Position numbers and translations under genes: made by a program
The notes under the pieces: model-generated
What the model saw: only the letters and a program-made list of their open reading frames with translations
What the model was told of the DNA's origin: nothing
Databases searched by the model: none
In this document: piece by piece, positions 2 through 14,400 of the stretch
Layout: each line of letters starts with the position of its first letter
How positions within the stretch are numbered: the stretch's first letter is position 1
IMG/VR virus record: IMGVR_UViG_3300043442_000977
Location: 1 to 24,456 of that record
Strand: one strand, 5' to 3'
DNA from: a virus
Taxonomy: Duplodnaviria; Caudoviricetes
Length of the DNA: 24,456 nucleotides

Positions 2-658
2 CTCCAATATGCCACTGGCACTGTTAAGGCTGCGTTTCCTGGCGCTAACCACACCATCTACTCAAAAGAAAGCTTGAGACAGTTCATAGCCGACAACTAT
101 GACACTGAAGTGCTCTGGGCTTACGATACGCTTCGTCCTTATTCGTACAAGGCAGACCTTGGGCGCTTTTGCTTGCTGAACAAGCTTGGCGGATGGTACA
201 TGGATATTGCCATCAGAATGGTAAACCCAGTGGAGATCGGCCCTCGTATTAAGATGCTTGCCTTTCGCGACATTCAGCGCTTTAGCTTCACTTCTTGGGC
301 CTGTGCCACCACTGTCCTCTATTCACAACCGGGCAATGCCGCACTGTCCACGGCAATTCAACTGATTGTTAAAAATTGCCACGAACAGTACTACGGCATC
401 ACTCCATTGTGCCCAACTGGACCAACTCTTCTGGGGCAAGCGCTTGCAATGAATGCAGGGCAGGCAGATTTTATTTATGGTGACTATCTCGAACTCACTC
501 CCACTCATGAGCAGAAGAATCGAGCCTTTGTCTTGCCGGATGGCACGATCATGGCATGGAGCAAGCCTTCTGGCGGTGGCGACCTGACCGGCGTAGGCGC
601 AAAAGGCGTTAACAATTACAATGAGCTGTGGGCGCAACGCAAGGTTTATGAAGCCTGA
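2..658 (+). CDS. Glycosyltransferase, GT32/Och1-like sugar-binding (DXD-type) family; 5' partial
   Basis: The frame is open from base 2 (LQYATGTVKAAFPGANHTIYSKESLRQFIADNY...), so the gene starts before the window. The motifs 'YSYKADLGRFCLLNKLGGWYMDI' and 'PTGPTLLG' match the xSDxxRxxxLxxxGGxYxD / TGP pattern of this family. The DxD position reads DIA. Confidence 0.8.
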   Translation, partial: LQYATGTVKAAFPGANHTIYSKESLRQFIADNYDTEVLWAYDTLRPYSYKADLGRFCLLNKLGGWYMDIAIRMVNPVEIGPRIKMLAFRDIQRFSFTSWACATTVLYSQPGNAALSTAIQLIVKNCHEQYYGITPLCPTGPTLLGQALAMNAGQADFIYGDYLELTPTHEQKNRAFVLPDGTIMAWSKPSGGGDLTGVGAKGVNNYNELWAQRKVYEA

Positions 659-1361
659 AGACTGGACCATTTACACGGCAAAACTCAAGCATCAAGCCAT
701 CACATATTCATCGCCAGCAACCATCGTTCCCATGGTTGTCAATGCTCATTCTCTGAGCGATGAGGAACGTCTTGCTCTGGCGAATGAAGGACACGCTTTT
801 GATGACGAAGGTTATCACATTTCGCAACTAAACCCTTTCTTTTGCGAACTTACTTCTGTATACTGGGCAATCAATAATTCAACTGAAAGTTACATTGGCA
901 ATGCTCATTATCGACGCAAGTGGAAAGATGCTGACATTGAAAACTCTGAGGACAATGTTTTATATGTGAGCGATCCCGCCTATTTTTCCTGCACATTGGC
1001 AGAGCAATTTCTTGGCGGCCATAACGGCTTTGATGCTCCTGCAATGACAGTCGGGCTAGCCGAGCGTGGCATGTTGCCGTTTTCTCCCAGCGAAATGCGT
1101 GCTGTATGGAACCAGAAGGTCTTCCATGGTTGCGAAATGGCTCGTGGTCCCGCCTCTCATTACAAAGCTTTTATGAATCTGCTTTTTGATTGTTTGTGGC
1201 CTTTCTGGTACGAGCACCGTGATGAAATAGAGGCGATGGAAGGATACAACAGAAGAATGATGGGCTTTGTTGGCGAGCGAATGATGACGGGGCTTATTCT
1301 GATGAGGGAAAAGTTCTTTGATTTCAATATCATGACTTCAGTCGTTGAATACAAGCCATGA
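648..1361 (+). CDS. DUF4422 (GT111-like, WbbM N-domain type) putative galactofuranosyltransferase
   Basis: The motifs 'ISQLNPFFCELTSVYWAINN', 'YIGNAHYRR' and 'RRMMGFVGER' match the DUF4422 pattern (NPxxCELTxxYW, GxxHYRR, RxxGFxxER). ATG 648 overlaps the end of the previous gene and is preferred over 621. Confidence 0.8.
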   Translation: MKPEDWTIYTAKLKHQAITYSSPATIVPMVVNAHSLSDEERLALANEGHAFDDEGYHISQLNPFFCELTSVYWAINNSTESYIGNAHYRRKWKDADIENSEDNVLYVSDPAYFSCTLAEQFLGGHNGFDAPAMTVGLAERGMLPFSPSEMRAVWNQKVFHGCEMARGPASHYKAFMNLLFDCLWPFWYEHRDEIEAMEGYNRRMMGFVGERMMTGLILMREKFFDFNIMTSVVEYKP

Positions 1362-1990
1362 TTTCGCAGCAGACTCTGGACGAAGTAAAGAGCCTTAAAC
1401 AGCTTTCGAAGGAGCCTTTGTTTTGGGTGATGGAGAATTGCAAGCCCACAGATGGCGACGATTTACTATGGCTTGAATTTGGCGTGTGGAAAGGAGCAAG
1501 TATCAATTATTTTGGCCAATTCACTCGACAAATTGTTTATGGGTTTGACAGTTTTGAAGGGCTGCCGGAAAAGTGGCGCACTGGTTTTGGAGAGGGGCAT
1601 TTTTCCATGGACGGAAAATTTCCAAATGTCAGGGACAACGTGACATTGATTAAGGGATGGTTCGACCAATCGTTGCCAGTTTTTCTGGCTGATCAGCAAA
1701 ATCGAAGCATTTCATTTGTGCATTTTGATGCTGACCTTTATTCATCTACGGCGTTTGTTCTTTCGTCCATCGCCCTTCGGCTAGCTCCAGATGCAATTTT
1801 CGTGTTTGACGAGCTGATCAACTATGAAGGTTTTGATGGGGAAAACGGAGAGCTAAAGGCCTGGGATGAATTTATTCAAAAGTACGATGTCCAATATTCC
1901 TGGATCGGAGGGCATGGAGAATTCGGAGACCATAAAACTTGCAATGAAAAAGCAGCCGTGAGGATTCACAGTGTCAAGCCCAAAGTATGA
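1358..1990 (+). CDS. Class I SAM-dependent O-methyltransferase, TylF/MycF-like
   Basis: Motifs LEFGVWKGAS, YGFDSFEGLPE, LIKGWFDQSLP, FVHFDADLYSST and FVFDE. ATGA overlap with the upstream stop. Confidence 0.85.
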   Translation: MISQQTLDEVKSLKQLSKEPLFWVMENCKPTDGDDLLWLEFGVWKGASINYFGQFTRQIVYGFDSFEGLPEKWRTGFGEGHFSMDGKFPNVRDNVTLIKGWFDQSLPVFLADQQNRSISFVHFDADLYSSTAFVLSSIALRLAPDAIFVFDELINYEGFDGENGELKAWDEFIQKYDVQYSWIGGHGEFGDHKTCNEKAAVRIHSVKPKV

Positions 1991-3098
1991 TTTCTTGATT
2001 GTCGGAAGTGGCATGTTTGGGGCAGTCTTTGCTCGCCTTGCCACCAATGCTGGCTATCGCTGCTTGGTTATTGACCGAAGAAAGCACATAGGAGGCAATT
2101 GCTACACTGAGAACAGGGAAGGCATTGATGTGCATTTGTACGGTCCTCATATTTTCCACACAAGCAACGAAACAGTTTGGCAATTTGTCAATCAATTTGC
2201 ACGCTTCAATGGTTTTGTCAATTCTCCTAAGGCCTTTGTAGACGGAAAATTGTATTCACTTCCGTTCTCAATGAATACGTTTCATGAGCTATGGGGACCA
2301 GCGGTAATCTCCCCTGAAGACGCAATGCAAATGATTGAAAAGGAGCGATGGAAAGGAGTGCCCACCAATCTTGAAGAGCAAGCGCTGTCAATGGTTGGCC
2401 AGAGTATCTACGAAAAGCTGATCAAGGGGTACACGGAAAAGCAATGGGGAAGAAAGGCCGTTGATTTGCCTTCATCGATCATTAAGCGATTGCCATTGCG
2501 CTTCACGTTTGATAGTAATTATTTCAACGATAAATATCAAGGGATACCCACGGAAGGATACACTTGCATGTTTGAACGCATGCTTGACGGCATCGAAATA
2601 GTCCTTGATACTGATTTTTTGGCTGCTCGCAGTTTTTGGAGAGATCAAAGTAATTACATTGTGTACACAGGGTGTATCGACGAATTTTTTGACTACAGGC
2701 TTGGACGGTTAAATTATCGCACGCTTGATTTTGCGCATCGCACAATAGATTGTGCAAATTATCAAGGAAATGCCGTTATCAACTTTCCATCCGTGAGGGT
2801 GCCATTTACTCGTCGAATAGAGCACAGGCATTTCAACGAGACGAAGAGCGCTGTAACGATCGTCACCAAGGAAACGCCCAGGGAATGCGAACCAGGAGAC
2901 ATTCCCTACTATCCCATCGCTACTGAAGACAATCTTTCCATTCATCGTCAGTATCAAGAACTAGCGAAAGAGGAGAGGGGTGTTATTTTTGGCGGAAGAC
3001 TTGCCGAATACAAATACATGGATATGCATGTTGTCATTGAAAGCGCCATGAACAAATGGCGAACATGGCAAAAAGCAAATGCTACGATGGTGGAATAA
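1971..3098 (+). CDS. glf: UDP-galactopyranose mutase
   Basis: FAD-binding IVGSGMFG, HIGGNCY, HLYGPHIFHTSN, GYTEKQWG, RLPLRFTFDSNYFNDKYQGIP, PYYP and GRLAEYKYMDMH. The 375-aa length is typical. Confidence 0.97.
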   Translation: MSSPKYDFLIVGSGMFGAVFARLATNAGYRCLVIDRRKHIGGNCYTENREGIDVHLYGPHIFHTSNETVWQFVNQFARFNGFVNSPKAFVDGKLYSLPFSMNTFHELWGPAVISPEDAMQMIEKERWKGVPTNLEEQALSMVGQSIYEKLIKGYTEKQWGRKAVDLPSSIIKRLPLRFTFDSNYFNDKYQGIPTEGYTCMFERMLDGIEIVLDTDFLAARSFWRDQSNYIVYTGCIDEFFDYRLGRLNYRTLDFAHRTIDCANYQGNAVINFPSVRVPFTRRIEHRHFNETKSAVTIVTKETPRECEPGDIPYYPIATEDNLSIHRQYQELAKEERGVIFGGRLAEYKYMDMHVVIESAMNKWRTWQKANATMVE

Positions 3099-3111: not shown

Positions 3112-3372
3112 ATGACTAAGAAGCAAAAGCAAGCGAAAATCTCCAAAGTCATGAAAGAATTCAAGGCCGGTACCTTGAAGAGCAGCAGCGGACAGCCAAT
3201 CACCAATTACAAACAGGCAGTTGCAATTGCATTGTCTGAAGCTGGCATGACCATGAAAAAGAAAGATGCCAGCGAGGAATACATGCGTGCATTCATTCGC
3301 CAAGTGCTTCAAGAAGAAGAAGCAATGGAAGAGGAAGAGGGTTGCATGGAAGACTCAATGGGAAAGTCCTGA
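3112..3372 (+). CDS. DUF6496-like small protein (basic N-half, acidic C-half); short product of a putative -1 frameshift gene
   Basis: 'KISKVMKEFKAGTLKSSSGQPITNYKQAVAIALSEAG' resembles the DUF6496 pattern. ATG 3112 follows the glf stop. The gene ends ATG GGA AAG TCC TGA. Confidence 0.7.
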   Translation: MTKKQKQAKISKVMKEFKAGTLKSSSGQPITNYKQAVAIALSEAGMTMKKKDASEEYMRAFIRQVLQEEEAMEEEEGCMEDSMGKS

Positions 3373-3719
3373 GGGGGGACGCTGAATCGTTCTCCCCTCC
3401 ATCGTCTGTTCGGTCTGCAGCGCGTCGCGGCCTTGAACTACGCAAGAAGCATGGCAAAGGCGGTCTAACCACGCAGGAAGCCGGCAAACAAGGCATTGGG
3501 AGCGGAGTGGCAAGAGCTTCGGACCTGGCCAGTGGCAGCGCATTGAGCTACGCCACAATCAAGCGCATGTCAGCATTCTTTTCTCGTCACGAGAAAAACA
3601 AGAGCGGCGGAGAAAATGATGCTGGCTACATTGCTTGGCTCCTTTGGGGCGGAGATGCTGGTAGGGCTTGGGCAAATCGCATCATTAAGATGGTTGAAAG
3701 CCGCGAAAAGGGCCAATGA
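3342..3719 (+). CDS. Phage head-region domain of unknown function ('WLLWGGDAG' motif); probably expressed as the -1 frameshift extension of 3112-3372
   Basis: The PPxxVRxAARRGL...GVARAxDL...TIKRMxxFFxRHE...IAWLLWGGDAGRAWA pattern resembles a domain I recall from phage head-morphogenesis proteins. The only start upstream of the domain is TTG 3342. Confidence 0.7.
   Translation: MHGRLNGKVLRGDAESFSPPSSVRSAARRGLELRKKHGKGGLTTQEAGKQGIGSGVARASDLASGSALSYATIKRMSAFFSRHEKNKSGGENDAGYIAWLLWGGDAGRAWANRIIKMVESREKGQ
3360..3399 (+). other. Putative programmed -1 ribosomal frameshift signal (G_GGA_AAG plus downstream hairpin)
   Basis: In-frame heptamer GGGAAAG at 3360-3366, 4-nt spacer, then hairpin GAGGGGGGACG-CTGAAT-CGTTCTCCCCTC (3371-3399, about 11 bp with one G-U pair and one bulge). 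The -1 frame is the open 3342-3719 ORF. Confidence 0.7.
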
Positions 3720-4027
3720 GCGAATACGTCCGTGTGATTGAAGAGGAAGAAGAAGATGGCATCGGCCTCCTGAAGGCTCTGGCAATCCTTTCGGCTCACG
3801 AGCATCGCAGCACTTCGCACTGGCGTCTTGTCGAGCGACAGCATTTTAAGAATGGTCGCCTTGACGAAACGCATATTTTTGTCGAAAGCTTTTACGAAAA
3901 GCCGGACGAGCATTTCGAGCCAGTCAAGATGCTCACCTTCGAGGCCGAGGCTATTGCCAAGGCTTATGTAATGGAAAGCATCGAAAATCAAATTCGCGAC
4001 ATTCAAGAAGAAGACGACGAAGATTGA
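3716..4027 (+). CDS. Hypothetical acidic protein (103 aa)
   Basis: ATGA coupling to the previous stop. Acidic ends (EEEEED, EEDDED). No family recognised. Confidence 0.7.
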   Translation: MSEYVRVIEEEEEDGIGLLKALAILSAHEHRSTSHWRLVERQHFKNGRLDETHIFVESFYEKPDEHFEPVKMLTFEAEAIAKAYVMESIENQIRDIQEEDDED

Positions 4028-4299
4028 GCCGCATTGACAACAAAGTTGGGCATTCCCAGCATCCACAGGACGGATATTCCATACAATCCGCTTAAAGTGG
4101 CTAGCTGAACCGCTGATGGCTCGGAATCGCCGCGCTCCATTCTGCAATAAGTCGCTTGCGAAACGTGCAGTGTGCTTGCTACGTGGCGCTGAGACAGTCC
4201 GCTGTTTTCTCTTAAGTTTCGCATCCTTGATGCAACCAACAATCTTCGCTCTGGATGCGGCATTTTTAGCGCGTTGGTTTTTTCTGTGAAAAGTTTCAT
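4003..4299 (-). CDS. XRE/Cro-C1 family helix-turn-helix transcriptional regulator (98 aa)
   Basis: 'RMRNLRENSGLSQRHVASTLHVSQATYCRMERGDSEPSAVQLATLSGLYGISVLWMLG' is a classic HTH_3 pattern. ATG at 4299 overlaps the TGA of the upstream endonuclease (ATGA), so it is preferred over 4398. Confidence 0.9.
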   Translation of the reverse strand: MKLFTEKTNALKMPHPERRLLVASRMRNLRENSGLSQRHVASTLHVSQATYCRMERGDSEPSAVQLATLSGLYGISVLWMLGMPNFVVNAAQSSSSSS

Positions 4300-4826
4300 G
4301 GCAAAAAGTGTTTGGTTATCGTCCATCCAGCGGCATTTTCCCGCTCGCCCTTTAAAACCTTTTGAAGGTTCGCTCGTTGCAACCCATGACTGCGACACGT
4401 TTTTCGTAAATTTTGAGTGACAATAATTTTTCCATCGGGGGATCGAAGGCAGAAATAGAAGCCTCGGGCACCTCCGGACATTGATCGACTGATTTTGGAC
4501 GCCCTGATAAGCTTTTCTTTTTCACCCATCCTCGAATACCATTCTGGATCGCATTGAAACTTTGCGCTTGTTTGCTTTGCCCGATTCGCAAAGTGCGGAT
4601 TTTTGTGCACTTCGTAGAAATCATGCAATACAATTTCTGCCTCTAAAGCTTCTTTGCTTGTCTCAAAAGTTGCAAGAACAATTTTTTGCGTGGGCCTGAA
4701 AGTTTTATCGCTAAAGCTTCCGAGATAAGGGTCGTCGTCGGGAGCACAGGAGGAGCTGCGCTTCCCGATGTAGCCCCTTCCCCACTCTTCGTAAGAGTAA
4801 TAGACGTAGTGCCAAGTCGCCGTCAC
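4296..4826 (-). CDS. Free-standing GIY-YIG (Seg-like) homing endonuclease with a C-terminal DNA-binding helix module
   Basis: HYVY...GYIGKR, DPYLGS, EALEAE (catalytic Glu helix) and HFAN. The C-terminal 'NLRKTCRSHGLQRANLQKVLKGER...GW' resembles NUMOD1/HTH tails. Confidence 0.8.
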   Translation of the reverse strand: MTATWHYVYYSYEEWGRGYIGKRSSSCAPDDDPYLGSFSDKTFRPTQKIVLATFETSKEALEAEIVLHDFYEVHKNPHFANRAKQTSAKFQCDPEWYSRMGEKEKLIRASKISRSMSGGARGFYFCLRSPDGKIIVTQNLRKTCRSHGLQRANLQKVLKGERENAAGWTITKHFLP

Positions 4827-4885
4827 CGATTCGCCTATGAATCACAGCTTGTAGTTTAATACATTTTTCTCTTTAGTATGTGACT
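4827..4885. promoter_or_regulatory. Divergent promoter region with candidate -10 boxes and an imperfect palindrome
   Basis: AT-rich gap between divergent genes. TAGTAT (+, 4874-4879), TAAACT (-, 4858-4853), TGTA-N6-TACA at 4850-4863 and GATTC-N6-GAATC at 4828-4843. Confidence 0.5.
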
Positions 4886-6082
4886 ATGGATTCACGCTCC
4901 TGCTTTCGCTACGACGTATCCCAAATCAGTGATTATCAAATCACGGAGGAGGGCTACCTAAAGGTTCGTGCTCGCATTGCGCGCACGGGTATTCAGTCGT
5001 ATACGGATGCAAGTGGTGGCATCCGCTTGGAATACCGCCCTGAAACTGAAGTTGCTTCTCAAGAGGCTCTTGATAGTTTCAAGGAAAAGTGTTTAACCAA
5101 AGAGCATCCCCCGGTGTTGCTCGATGCGTCAAACACAAAGGATTATGCAGTTGGCTTTACAAGTGCAGATGTCTCGTATTCCGATGGCTTCGTTGAATCC
5201 ACTTTAACAGTCACTGACAAGGACACCATTGAGGAAATCATGCGCGGCGACGTTCGCGAGGTTTCCTGTGGATACAAGGTCGATTATGTTGACGAAGCTG
5301 GCATTACGCCAGACGGTCAACATTACGACGGTTACCAAAGAAACATTCGCGGTAACCATGTGGCCATTGTCAAAAGAGCCAGAGGCGGTCCAAGTGTTCG
5401 TCTCATGCTCGACTCAGCGGATGCCGCTGTGACCGAATTGCTTACCTCTATTCAAGGAGAAATTATGTCGGCAAACATTGTGTTTGACGGCGTTTCTTTT
5501 GAGGCAGATTCCGCCCTTGCAGCCGCCATTACGGCTGAGCGTGAAGACGCGAAGGCGACTTATGCTGATATGAAACGCAAATATGATGAAATGATGGCCG
5601 AAGCTTCCAAAATGAAGGAAGAAATGGACGCCATGGGCAAGGAAATGAAGGGCAAATGCGACGCTGCCGAAGGTCGCGCTGACGCCCTCGAGCAAGAGCT
5701 TGAATCAATGAAGCTTGAGCTTGATGCTGCTAAGGAAGTGAATCTCGATTCGCTTGTTGAAGAGCGCGTTGCCTTGATTGATAAAGCTCGCACCACCCTG
5801 GATAGCGAGTTTGATTTTGCTGGCAAGAGTGCCCGCGAAGTCATGGAGGCTGCCATCAAGGCAGTTCGTGGCGATGCCCTGGATCTGTCGGAGCGTTCCG
5901 ACGATTATGTGCAAGCCATGTTCGACACGCTGGCTGAACTGCCCCGCGCTGATTCTGCTGCCACTGACGAACTCCGTAAGGCAGTGGCTTCCATTGCCAC
6001 TCCGGCTTCTGCTCCTTCTTCCTATATGGAGAAGATTCAGAACGCTTGGAAATCTCCCCTTTCTGTTACTAAGGAGCGCTGA
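4886..6082 (+). CDS. DUF2213 prohead protease fused to a coiled-coil scaffold domain
   Basis: N-terminal 'TEEGYL...IARTGIQ.Y...YRP..EV...LTKEHP...EVSCGY...QRNIRGNHVAIVKRARGG' is the DUF2213 signature. The C-half is acidic and heptad-like. The start could be GTG 4880 or ATG 4886. Confidence 0.88.
   Translation: MDSRSCFRYDVSQISDYQITEEGYLKVRARIARTGIQSYTDASGGIRLEYRPETEVASQEALDSFKEKCLTKEHPPVLLDASNTKDYAVGFTSADVSYSDGFVESTLTVTDKDTIEEIMRGDVREVSCGYKVDYVDEAGITPDGQHYDGYQRNIRGNHVAIVKRARGGPSVRLMLDSADAAVTELLTSIQGEIMSANIVFDGVSFEADSALAAAITAEREDAKATYADMKRKYDEMMAEASKMKEEMDAMGKEMKGKCDAAEGRADALEQELESMKLELDAAKEVNLDSLVEERVALIDKARTTLDSEFDFAGKSAREVMEAAIKAVRGDALDLSERSDDYVQAMFDTLAELPRADSAATDELRKAVASIATPASAPSSYMEKIQNAWKSPLSVTKER
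5465..6082 (+). CDS. Putative nested in-frame scaffold protein (205 aa) from an internal start
   Basis: AAGGAG at 5454-5459 lies 5 nt before the in-frame ATG 5465, at the protease/coiled-coil boundary. Confidence 0.55.
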   Translation: MSANIVFDGVSFEADSALAAAITAEREDAKATYADMKRKYDEMMAEASKMKEEMDAMGKEMKGKCDAAEGRADALEQELESMKLELDAAKEVNLDSLVEERVALIDKARTTLDSEFDFAGKSAREVMEAAIKAVRGDALDLSERSDDYVQAMFDTLAELPRADSAATDELRKAVASIATPASAPSSYMEKIQNAWKSPLSVTKER

Positions 6083-6659: not shown

Positions 6660-7577
6660 ATGACGACTGATTTTCGTATGGATGAGGCGGGGCTGTTTCT
6701 TGAGCGTCAGCTTGAGTACATCCGCCCTCAGGTGTTTGAAGTTGAGTATGCCGACATCAAATACCCCACCATTCTGCCTGTGACCAGCGAGGCTGGTAAC
6801 GCTGCGCAAACCTTCACCTACCGCATCATGGACTCCACTGGTGAGTTCCGTCTGATTGCGGATGCTGCTGACGATCTGCCCCGTGCTGACGTTAGCCAAG
6901 TGGAGAAGAGCATCAACATTCGTTCCTTTGGCGGCAGCTTCGGCTACACCGTTCAGGAACTGCGTGCTGCTCAAATGGCCAATGTCGCCCTAGAGCAGCG
7001 TCGTGCTGCTGCTGTGCGTCGTGCCTATGAAGAGAAAGTTGAAAACGTCGCCATGTTTGGCGAAAGCTCAGTTGGTCTGGCTGGCTTCTTCAACAACAGC
7101 ACTGTTGACGTGATTGCCACTGACCGTTGGTTCACTGGCACCACTGCTAGCGGCACCGCTCAGGACATGCTGGAACTGCTGAACTATGGCGTGAGCGCCA
7201 TCATCAGTGCTTCCAAAATGAAGGAGCAGCCCGACACCATCCTCATGGCCTATGAGGACTACAACAAGGTGAGCACCACTCGTAACAGTGACTCTTCGGA
7301 CGTGACTGTTCTCGAGTATTTCCTGCGCACCAACCCCTACATCCGCAACGTTGAGCCCATCAACCAGCTTGACGCGGACAATAGCGTGCTCAACACCAAC
7401 CGCATGGTTGTGTACAAGCGCGATCCTCAGAAGGTGCAACTGCACATTCCGCAGCCTCTCGAGCTGTTCCCCCCGCAACAGCGTAGTCTGGAATTCATCG
7501 TTCCCGCTCATGCCCGCGTGGGTGGTGTCGCTCTCTACTACCCCAAGAGCGTCATCTACCTTCAGGCTTCTGCCTGA
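6660..7577 (+). CDS. Major capsid protein, DUF2184 (HK97 fold)
   Basis: FLERQLEYI, GYTVQELRAAQ...EQRRAAAVRRAYEE, GLAGFFNN and RVGGVALYYP are DUF2184-type motifs. GGAGG RBS and strongly C/T-ending codons. Confidence 0.9.
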   Translation: MTTDFRMDEAGLFLERQLEYIRPQVFEVEYADIKYPTILPVTSEAGNAAQTFTYRIMDSTGEFRLIADAADDLPRADVSQVEKSINIRSFGGSFGYTVQELRAAQMANVALEQRRAAAVRRAYEEKVENVAMFGESSVGLAGFFNNSTVDVIATDRWFTGTTASGTAQDMLELLNYGVSAIISASKMKEQPDTILMAYEDYNKVSTTRNSDSSDVTVLEYFLRTNPYIRNVEPINQLDADNSVLNTNRMVVYKRDPQKVQLHIPQPLELFPPQQRSLEFIVPAHARVGGVALYYPKSVIYLQASA

Positions 7578-10464: not shown

Positions 10465-10999
10465 CTTTCTTCTTGAAACTAAGGCAACTGATTATTTTGA
10501 ACTGCTGCCAGATATTCGCATGAAGAAGTATGGTGGCTGGCTGGTTGCTGAGGCTATCGAACAGGAGGAAATCAGCAAATTGCAAAGCCAAGCTACCATC
10601 CGCGCCGTGCAACTTGCCAAGCGCATTGCTGCCGCCAAGGATATTCCGCTTGACGAGGCATTTGGTTTGCTGCAAGGAGGCGGCGCCATCACTGAAGCTG
10701 AGCTCTTGTCAGATTTCACCGAAGAAACCCTGAGTATGATCACTAGTGGCACTTCAGTGGAAGCTACTAATGCTCGCATGGTCACTGCTTTTATTCGCTC
10801 GCGGGGGCAGGGCTTGATCGATGGCGAGTGGCAAGATTTGCTTGATTGGGAAACGGAAGATACCAAAGGACTCCCTCGTTCCATTGTTTCCAAGATTGTG
10901 GATTTCATTTCCGCTGAACAAGAAGCCGAAATGAAGGAGGCCAATGACACGGCAAAAAAAGCTTCGAAGAGGAGTTCTCCTCAATCGCAGAACGGTTAG
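10451..10999 (+). CDS. Tail assembly chaperone (gpG-equivalent)
   Basis: Lies between the tube and tape measure genes. Acidic and helical, with a slippery A-run near the 3' end. Confidence 0.75.
   Translation: MSKYSFLLETKATDYFELLPDIRMKKYGGWLVAEAIEQEEISKLQSQATIRAVQLAKRIAAAKDIPLDEAFGLLQGGGAITEAELLSDFTEETLSMITSGTSVEATNARMVTAFIRSRGQGLIDGEWQDLLDWETEDTKGLPRSIVSKIVDFISAEQEAEMKEANDTAKKASKRSSPQSQNG
10934..10982 (+). other. Programmed -1 frameshift signal of the tail chaperone
   Basis: AAGGAGG at 10934-10940, in-frame A_AAA_AAA at 10954-10960, and hairpin GAGGA-GTTC-TCCTC at 10969-10982. Confidence 0.78.
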
Positions 11000-11462: not shown

Positions 11463-14400
11463 ATGGCAGGGGAAGCTGGCGCAAGCAATGTTGGCCTTCA
11501 GCTTAGCGTTACGCTTGACTTAGCGGCATTTAGAAAGCAGCTAGGACTGGCTGCACAGGCCGCTGCCGCTTATTATTACCCAATCAATGTTTTTATTGAT
11601 AAAAGAAACTTTGATCGACAGCTAGACAATATTGATCGGCAGTTTGCGCGGAGAAATTACAGGCTAGAGGTCATTACAAATTTTGCGGCAGAAATTGACT
11701 ACGCCGATAAGTTAATCACTAAGATTCAACAAGTTAAACAGGCTGCCAATGGGGGCCAAACGGCCGGCAAAGTTCCACCGGTAGGACTTGTAAACGCTTC
11801 GAATCTAAACCTTACGAAAAAGGATCAAGGCGTATCGGTCGGCGAAATCAAGGCTCTTTACGAGAGCTTGGCAATTGCTGGTGTTGAGGGATTTGAAAGG
11901 GGCAGCAAAAAAACGCGCCTTCAAATGATTGCGCAAATTCAAACGGTTGGCCAAGACGTTATGGCTGGCCTTCTTAACGGACTGGGAAGTGGAGACGCAG
12001 CCCTTGAAGCTGCGGCAAAAAATCTTGGAACAGTATTGATTACCACTTTTAAGCGCTTGCTTGGCATTGCATCTCCATCGCGAGTGTTTCGTGAACTAGG
12101 ACGAAATATTGGAGAAGGCTTTGAGCAAGGCGTTATTGCTTCAATGGACAAGGCTTTTGACGCCTTGGAGCGACAACTTCGACAGCGTCTTGCAGTTTTA
12201 CAGGGCATGATGAGCGGAGGCAGGGGAGCCTTTCCCTTTGTTGCCAAAACTGGACCGATTGAACAAAAAGCTTTATTCGCAGAATCGGCAAATCTTGCTC
12301 GTAAAATTGATCAAACTCGCGCTGAAATTAGCCAAATTCAAGCGCGTCGCGAATCGCGCATGTCTTTACAGCGCGAATCATTAGCCCAATCGGCCGGAAG
12401 GATTTTACCTCCAGCACGAGACCGATCTTTGCCGGCGGCTCGTGGAGCGATTTTTCCCCAGGACACTGCCACTGAGCAGGTTCTGCAAGGGTTCTTCCGT
12501 TCCTTGAGGAATGCGCAAGATTTTTTTGCAAGAAATTTCTCTGCCAATACCTACCTATCGAAAGCTAGTTATCAATTTGCAACTTCAATGAACGAAGCCT
12601 CGCGGCTATTGCGAGAGCAAAGAATTGCAGGACTGCTTCCTTCGCTGGAAATGCTTGAGCCGTTGAAATTTCAACGCGCTATTCAAGCGGCTCAAAAAAT
12701 AGACGCCGCCAACGCCTTCAAGGGTTTGCTATCGACACCTTTGCTTCCTGGCGTCGGGATGACCGGCTCGACCGCTGCGGCACGAGCCACGCTTTCAGGA
12801 CAGCAATTTCGAGCACCAAGTCTCGGACGCACAGAAGCCGGCCAGCCAGGCGCTGCAATGGCTGAATCCGGCCCTATTGCTGACAGGCTTCGGCAGGCGG
12901 CGGTTAACTTCTCGAAAAATGCTCCTTCGGTCATTAAGTACCTAAACCTTTTTAGCACTGCTGGAGGAATCAACATTGGCGACCTTCCGGGGCCGGGAGA
13001 GTCTCCGGGGCAATATATTCGTCGAATTCAACAATCATTACAGCTTCAGCTTAAGCAGGGTGGCTTTGGAGCTGGAACGGTGCCGTCAAGGACGGAATTT
13101 TTTCAACCAGGAAGAGGGCCTCAGCTCCCCGGCATGCCTATTCAGCCATTGCTCCCACCGGGTGGCGGCACGGGTGGCGGCGATCGCGTGAGGGGCGTTG
13201 AACCGGATCGCGGTGGAGCGCTTGCTCTTGCAAAATCACCGTCTACCGATTTACCGAAAAATTACTTTGAAAACGCAAAGAAATATTCGGCAGCTCTTGG
13301 AATGGCGCGGGCTACTATGGACAAATTTTCGGCAGCTCAAGTGCCATTTATTGGAGGCTTACAAGGGTTGGCCGCAGAATTTGGAATGGCAACGAAGCAA
13401 GTGTTGCTGTATGGCACAGCTTATAAGGGGCTCGCTTTTGTTACCAGTCTTCCTGGACAGCTACTAAATGCCGCTAAAGGCCAACAACAATATAACAATG
13501 CTTTGAAAACTGCCACGCAAGACACTGGCACCTATGCGAAGGAGCTTCTGTATGTAGACGGCGTCCAAAGAGCTTTCGGTCTAGATCTTGAAATAACAAG
13601 ACAAGGGTTTGCTCGGCTTTATGCGTCGATGGGACCAGCAGGATTCGATTCTGGCTCTATTGAAAAACTTTTTACAGGCATTAGCGCGGCGACAGCCGCC
13701 TTGCAACTTACTCCCGACAAGGCGGAACGAGTGATTTATGCCTTTGGTCAAATGGCCAGCAAAGGGCAAATTATGAGCGAAGAGCTAAAGGGACAGTTGG
13801 GAGACGTGCTTCCCGGCGCTTTGGCCATCTTCGCCAAGGCGGCTGGAATGTCCGTGAAAGAATTTAACAAGGCAATGGAAGACGGGGAATTCGTTGGCAA
13901 ACGTTTTCGCGAAGTATTTGCTCAAGTGAGTGATCAGCTCATGACTCGCTTTGGAACGGGAGCGCAAGCAGCGGGCAGATCCCTGCAAGGCTTGCTCAAT
14001 ACGGTCAGAGGCGAGTTTCTTCGCACTTTGGAAGCATTGTCTCCCTTGGCCGATGCGGCTGCAAAAGCCGTTTTGGCTCCACTAGGAGAAGGCCTTAAGA
14101 CAATGGCCGTAGGCGCTCAAATTGCAACAGGAGAGATGGGGAGGGTTGCAAAACAAGTGCAAGAAGCACAGCAAGTTGTTGCTGATCTAAAAAAACAAAA
14201 TGCTGACCAAAAGGATATTGATGCAGCAAGTCAAAGTTTGGTAGCACTGGAGGCACGTCTTAGAAGTTTGCAGTTGGCGTCAACAGATCCGGCCATCATG
14301 GATGCAGCCAAAAACATTGACGCATTCACAAAAGAGCTAGCCAAAGCGGGCCAGTTTGTTATGACCGTTGCTCAGGGCATAGGCAGGGTTCTTGGGCCGG

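Follow-up and report, generated by a model that had tools for sequence, protein, structure and literature searches.

A conserved signal for programmed -1 ribosomal frameshifting probably joins a DUF6496 protein to a second domain in the head region of a group of tailed phages

Frameshifting by one base backwards at a V_VVA_AAG heptamer followed by a 3' structure has been described in insertion sequences of the IS3 family (IS911 and IS3), where the shift produces a longer fusion protein, and in the E. coli dnaX gene (excerpts of PMC4066793 and PMC5009743). According to the same excerpts, A_AAA_AAG, G_GGA_AAG and C_CCA_AAG are the most efficient -1 motifs in E. coli when they are accompanied by stimulators, with values of up to 54%. 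In phage lambda, one morphogenesis gene yields a short product, gpG, and a C-terminally extended one, gpGT (excerpt of PMC5009743). Frameshifting is also described in capsid genes, in phages T7 and T3, Lactobacillus phage A2 and Listeria phages A118, A500 and PSA, where part of the product carries an additional C-terminal domain (same excerpt), Ig-like in most of them, and recoding outside the tail module therefore has precedent.

In this work we have analysed a stretch of DNA of 24,456 nucleotides from a lake virus, referred to here as the window, in which an earlier note had proposed a -1 frameshift outside the tail module. We consider it very probable (about 0.9) that ORF1 and the -1 frame overlapping its end are one gene, expressed by programmed -1 ribosomal frameshifting as products of 86 and 202 aa. 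We propose that ribosomes would pause at a hairpin with G_GGA_AAG in their P and A sites, and that a fraction of them would slip back one base, by a tandem -1 slippage on the heptamer that the hairpin would promote, giving rise to the 86-aa protein and to a 202-aa fusion bearing a second domain (domain 2). The features involved are collected in Table 1. This mechanism is classic, while the gene family is new for -1 frameshifting. As judged from sequence, the ORF1 site would share with IS3 and dnaX all the features tested except the optional upstream Shine-Dalgarno stimulator, for which the region 9-14 nt upstream in the split loci gave no peak above the background of the purine-rich linker. 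Unlike in those systems, the genes are different ones, no conserved upstream stimulator of this kind was detected, and all three top heptamers are interchangeable within one gene family. Similarly to lambda gpG/gpGT, a short and a C-terminally extended product are predicted here; in contrast to it, the ORF1 site lies in the head region, flanked by the portal side and by the protease gene, and not before the tape measure gene, many ORF1 relatives are fused in frame, and the genome has a separate G/GT-type site. We have rejected an identity with the G/GT tail chaperone, since the ORF1 site is upstream of the head protease gene and not between the major tail and tape measure genes. A shift extending the major capsid protein is rejected as well: the capsid gene is elsewhere, ORF1 being small and accessory, and for the added domain an all-helical rather than an Ig-like fold is predicted.

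Table 1. Coordinates of the features discussed, numbered from the first nucleotide of the window
Feature	Position	Strand	Remarks
ORF1, zero-frame product, 86 aa	3112..3372	+	basic DUF6496 module at aa 4-45, conserved Lys-x-Asp, short helix, acidic linker
TTG, sole in-frame start upstream of domain 2	3342..3344	+	in 2/128, not conserved
Slippery heptamer G_GGA_AAG, in frame	3360..3366	+	V_VVA_AAG in 128/128 distinct split relatives
-1 frame segment, 117 codons	3366..3719	+	Arg-Gly-Asp, then basic, predicted all-helical domain 2; phrog_2859, without Pfam family
ORF1 stop TGA	3370..3372	+	one codon 3' of the heptamer, overlaps the hairpin foot
3' hairpin, predicted frameshift stimulator	3371..3399	+	11 bp, one bulge, -17.2 kcal/mol, 4-nt spacer
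Arg-Gly-Asp, putative head-protease site before domain 2	3372..3380	+	in the -1 frame; putative cleavage
Next gene, 103 aa, function unassigned	3716..4027	+	ATG overlaps the domain-2 stop (ATGA), ordinary coupled junction
DUF2213 head maturation protease/scaffold	4880..6082	+	10 [RK]-x-D against 4.7 expected; C-terminal helix weakly like the ORF1 helix
Major capsid gene	6660-7577		the ORF1 shift is not at its end

ORF1 ends ATG GGA AAG TCC TGA, so that G_GGA_AAG stands in the X_XXY_YYZ register just as the earlier note had it, and the -1 frame is indeed open for 117 codons from 3366, as far as the TGA at 3717-3719. In an HMM search ORF1 was assigned to DUF6496 (PF20106; E 2.6e-8, 34.5 bits for a gathering cut-off of 24), and the -1 segment matches phrog_2859 with an E value of 4.1e-18. 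Over the 7,380 codon positions of the 25 plus-strand genes of the window, a slippery heptamer stands in frame 14 times; among these 14, a long open -1 frame follows only at the ORF1 site and at the tail-chaperone site, and the most stable downstream hairpin is that of the ORF1 site. Contigs of two other studies (runs X3 and X7) span the junction with 26-28 substitutions and no gaps, and the junction is therefore not an assembly error. In RNA run X13, coverage of the window was confined to positions 3646-3828 and does not reach the junction. The Rfam search returned a single match at chance level (E 0.78), and the promoter and terminator scan gave no more than the level of shuffled sequences.

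For the comparative analyses we used a pool of 366 loci plus the window, in which domain 2 is held by 318 of the 367; 4 loci could not be anchored, and the anchored domain-2 loci were collapsed to 169 distinct junctions of 120 nt. These comprise 128 with a -1 overlap, 27 fused in frame, 8 cut by a contig end, 4 without an ORF1 match and 2 with other indels. Counting those in which the two parts are either fused or overlap in the -1 frame, there are thus 155 distinct relatives (128 split and 27 fused), in a pool deliberately enriched in fused forms; a pattern scan favouring neither form found domain 2 in 108 of 120 loci, 86 of them split and 12 fused, and a metagenome scan contributed at least 6 loci. 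The fused state is scattered over the tree, with 10-12 changes. The fused proteins measure 182-216 aa and the predicted transframe products 168-228 aa, a fit in size that supports the frameshift reading.

The existence of in-frame fusions, together with stray indels in a few loci (L093, L107, L174 and probably L036), could suggest that a fusion gene has been broken in the window or that the sequence was misassembled. However, 128 distinct junctions, whose domain-2 nucleotide identity is 70-82% (10th-90th percentile), have the same -1 overlap, as do the cultured phage S-CBS4 and the contigs of the two other studies, and we regard this explanation, ruled out by the conservation of the overlap, as having a practically negligible chance of being correct. 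Some fusions (L036, L242 and L319, from one contig, and P0021) retain a split-type junction with one extra base, and these are either homopolymer errors or very recent fusions.

The conservation of the heptamer in homologues, which the earlier note had proposed as a check, is complete, a shift-prone heptamer being present in all 128 relatives with the -1 overlap. It is A_AAA_AAG in 88, G_GGA_AAG in 31 and C_CCA_AAG in 9, 8 of the latter in register and one (L178) one codon further upstream. GGGAAAG is the slippery heptamer of lambda G/T, and the claim that this heptamer is present here stands as far as the window is concerned, but not for the family, whose signal is V_VVA_AAG and most often A_AAA_AAG. 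The base that precedes XX is X in all 127 in-register junctions, across 8, 6 and 2 different preceding codons. The codons of the heptamer are not simply those preferred in the rest of ORF1, where the shares of GGA, CCA and AAG among the Gly, Pro and Lys codons are only 14%, 22% and 57%, respectively. In 119 of the 128 a single codon separates the heptamer from the ORF1 stop, in 6 the stop follows immediately, and in 3 it is more distant. On two trees the heptamer class changes at least 18-20 times, so it is not one inherited accident. A heptamer of this class is found near just 3 of the 27 fused junctions; two of these heptamers are misplaced, and the third is in L036, represented by a single contig in which an additional A could result from an assembly slip. 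By analogy, slippage at the ORF1 heptamer would be expected to happen and may be efficient, the published efficiencies being E. coli values. A host in which AAG is decoded by tRNA-Lys(UUU) alone would favour the shift.

Runs of A also raise the question of whether the fusion could be made by slippage of the RNA polymerase and not of the ribosome, as at least six consecutive A are present in 88 of the 128 junctions. The other 40, the window included, have only three A, and transcriptional slippage fails for these loci for that reason; ribosomal slippage is also in keeping with the constant codon register and with the presence of the 3' hairpin. We thus find it extremely improbable that the polymerase is responsible.

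Could domain 2 instead be a separate gene, translated by re-initiation or from a start codon of its own? The TTG that the earlier note had singled out as the only upstream start is present in the window, with GAGGA at 3331-3335 ahead of it; a CTG lies over the ORF1 stop in 66 of the 128 split relatives; and RefSeq places the start of the S-CBS4 counterpart, gp019, at a downstream GTG. None of the three is supported by the comparison. The TTG recurs only in the window and its nearest relative, in agreement with the expectation that no start of the second ORF would be conserved, and the ORF1 stop is overlapped by CTA or TTA in 42 of the 128 and by ATG or GTG in only 2 (ATG in 1). The overlap ATGA at the next junction, in contrast, is found in 85 of the 128 split and in 24 of the 27 fused loci. 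The GTG chosen for S-CBS4 is present in 29 of the 128 relatives and would remove the invariant Phe-x-Pro-Pro, which is the first invariant motif of domain 2. In 87 of the 128 there is no ATG, GTG or TTG between the upstream stop and this motif, in 52 there is none even 20 codons into the domain, and the earliest conserved Met is 58 codons inside it. Since two separate genes would also leave the heptamer unexplained, we judge this arrangement to be very unlikely, and frameshifting remains our preferred reading.

A GC-rich hairpin of about 11 bp, starting 4 nt past the heptamer, had likewise been described, and folding of the window yielded 11 pairs. Against shuffled sequences its stability gives z values of -2.7 (30 nt), -2.1 (44 nt), -0.2 (64 nt) and 0.0 (76 nt); because the segments of 64-76 nt fold no better than shuffles, stability alone is only suggestive, and the strong evidence is comparative and does not come from the stability of a single sequence. 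The mean hairpin energy is -15.9 kcal/mol in the 128 split loci versus -6.6 kcal/mol in the 27 fused ones, and the native hairpin surpasses at least 95% of its synonymous recodings in 101 of 127 split loci versus 1 of 27 fused loci. The compensatory changes that the earlier note had suggested looking for were found. One pair of the stem is A-U in 50, C-G in 36, U-G in 14, G-U in 4 and unpaired in 9 of 113 distinct split sequences, and it joins the wobble base of a Gly codon to a Ser/Ala change in the protein. The covariation score was above those of 500 out of 500 shuffles and of every slid control, although this one pair accounts for most of it and the sequences tested also served to derive the structure. 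With relatedness controlled by the use of tree-independent pairs, the two sides of the stem changed together 10.3 times and oppositely 0 times (p ~0.002), and fusion accompanied the loss of the hairpin in 5.8 independent pairs versus 0 (p ~0.03); L036 and two short rows were left out of these tests. A weak hairpin (above -10 kcal/mol) is seen in 9 of 126 split loci, and in one split locus with C_CCA_AAG it reaches only -2.6 kcal/mol. In the C_CCA_AAG clade formed by L178, L226, L245 and L493, Ser/Ala-Leu-Asp replaces Arg-Gly-Asp and the 5' arm of the standard hairpin is altered, with L178 folding weakly; this clade may have another stimulator or none.

To which of the two parts does the signal belong? 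In two relatives (L361 and L362) ORF1 has shrunk to about 25 aa and lacks DUF6496, yet G_GGA_AAG and the hairpin are kept, and in another (L170) ORF1 has gained an extra internal domain with the frameshift signal retained. As the signal survives both events, it belongs to domain 2. Similarly, in unrelated phages the DUF6496 genes (L126-L160, distinct proteins among these) have no frameshift signal at their end, which ties the signal to domain 2 and not to DUF6496 in general. Some relatives of ORF1 (P0243, P0244 and P0248) have an additional Cys-rich N-terminal domain, ending in [RK]-x-D, ahead of DUF6496, and in L341:4591-6234 this Cys-rich extension is in frame with a further upstream domain, for a total of 548 aa.

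Domain 2 is very widespread (at E up to 0.001, 3,783 representatives remain after clustering at 50% identity), basic (pI 10.4) and predicted to be all-helical in the structure model of a fused relative (mean pLDDT 78). Comparison with solved structures gave no match, whether by sequence (E up to 1), with Foldseek (E up to 0.001) or with VIA-align (Z >=5, 48,161 chains), and the ESM Atlas search gave unnamed viral clusters only; these results do not establish a new fold. Elsewhere domain 2 is fused to portals, XkdF, DUF2213 and Mu-I proteases, capsid, ChaB, InPase and 2H domains. In 43 of 114 longer homologs its start lies at most 12 aa from the N-terminus, and [ILVM]-x-K-[AGS], a putative protease motif with a background of 4%, precedes 28 of 61 distinct internal copies; the N-terminus of domain 2 would thus usually be free or freeable.

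What could be the role of the two products? A [RK]-x-D motif precedes domain 2 in 125 of the 128 split and in all 27 fused relatives, and Lys-x-Asp follows DUF6496 in ORF1 of 118 of the 128 split relatives. The motif is also found ahead of DUF6496 where the extra N-terminal domain is present, at the N-terminus of the capsid protein and, about twofold enriched, in the scaffold. In the one testable clade with an x-Leu-Asp junction (L388), [RK]-x-D is kept in scaffold and capsid and the predicted covariation is absent; a loose DNA pattern scan for this clade gave 121 loci, only 2 of them with domain 2. The ORF1 helix shows a weak likeness to the C-terminal helix of the scaffold (window 5890-5940; hhalign 54.5%, E 1.2e-4). 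An HMM of this helix had a best match of 8 bits, with an unrelated ORF at 8.5, and its top matches outside ORF1 among 4,167 ORFs were mostly scaffolds, all of one family. The helix, which comes after Lys-x-Asp, is the sole piece of ORF1 retained in L361 and L362 after the loss of DUF6496.

The fixed ratio of products and the part in head assembly put forward in the earlier note are not readable from the sequence itself, and a head role is suggested by context. From this context we tentatively suggest, at somewhat under even odds, that both products are associated with the head and that the head protease cuts at Arg/Lys-x-Asp, freeing two small basic modules in the capsid. The ORF1 helix would target both products to the prohead, cleavage would release the modules inside the capsid, and the frameshift would set the dose of domain 2. 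The complete version of this model is a frameshift-dosed cassette of head cargo, in which the helix mimics the scaffold, the DUF2213 protease does the cutting, the shift sets the number of domain-2 copies per virion and lineages toggle between split and fused forms; as a whole we consider it doubtful. Precedents for packaged proteins are the polyvalent proteins, described as likely packaged (excerpt of PMC5512222), and the internal head proteins of T4, whose targeting propeptide is removed by the head protease (excerpt of PMC5694885). As in polyvalent proteins, domain 2 can share a polypeptide with InPase, LPD1, ddrB-ParB, 2H, portal and protease domains. In contrast to both groups, here there would be two small modules with no recognised enzyme, the proposed cut would be after Asp rather than Glu (T4-type), and packaging and cleavage are putative.

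It is also possible, although we think it unlikely, that the frameshift is real and only throttles domain 2, the short product being a by-product, with no need for packaging or protease cutting. The retention of heptamer and hairpin in L361 and L362 would fit this proposal, as would the fused relatives, which yield no short product; the fused lineages indicate, besides, that a partial ratio is not essential. The gene sits between glycosyltransferase-type genes and the protease gene, so its position alone is no proof of a head role. Against a mere throttle, most split loci show good conservation of DUF6496, ORF1 retains Lys-x-Asp at the frequency given above, and [RK]-x-D also stands ahead of DUF6496 behind the extra N-terminal domain.

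Downstream of the cassette follow the DUF2213 head protease/scaffold, a cement protein, the major capsid protein and the tail module. Upstream of ORF1, positions 74-3098 of the window contain a block of genes for glycosyltransferase, DUF4422, methyltransferase and UDP-galactopyranose mutase proteins, a content that varies among relatives. On the minus strand, at 4003-4826, an HTH gene and a homing-endonuclease-like gene lie between the cassette and the protease gene. Near the end of a 182-aa gene before the tape measure gene there is an in-frame A_AAA_AAA at 10954-10960, with a -1 frame that stays open over 155 codons as far as 11427; this is probably the expected tail-chaperone shift of the G/GT type, separate from the ORF1 site.

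The nearest cultured phage is the Synechococcus siphovirus S-CBS4 (NC_016766.1), which shares 78% identity in domain 2 and the gene order from gp018/gp019 through the tail. Its signal consists of A_AAA_AAG at 13169-13175 of the record and a hairpin of -20.7 kcal/mol. In contrast to our prediction of a transframe product of 217 aa, RefSeq gives two separate hypothetical proteins, gp018 and gp019, without a frameshift. An HNH gene is placed directly upstream of ORF1 in S-CBS4. Because S-CBS4 is the closest cultured relative, the host of the window virus is presumably a cyanobacterium; cassette contigs are also present in assemblies labelled as other taxa, which may be misbinned.

In our literature search we found no paper describing a frameshift in the gene family of DUF6496 and domain 2, in a search with poor coverage of subscription journals, and none on DUF6496 itself. 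Nothing was found on a frameshift in the S-CBS4 gene by title or start of abstract, nothing relevant on programmed frameshifting in cyanophage capsids and no virion proteomics for S-CBS4; the excerpts of the PRFect paper (PMC10885494) make no mention of cyanophages. Frameshifting at ORF1 would correct the annotation of gp018/gp019 in a cultured phage and in a common freshwater phage group, and this group would then probably have a -1 frameshift in the head region in addition to that of the tail. The family also offers a natural experiment, with three interchangeable heptamers, a hairpin that covaries at an amino-acid cost and repeated switches between split and fused forms, and it would provide, in a culturable phage-host pair, a testable handle on a very widespread phage domain without a Pfam family or a clear match to a solved structure. 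In S-CBS4, the C-terminal region of the portal protein (L367:7099-9003) contains a near copy of the N-terminal arm of the capsid protein and a basic module preceded by Arg-Gly-Asp.
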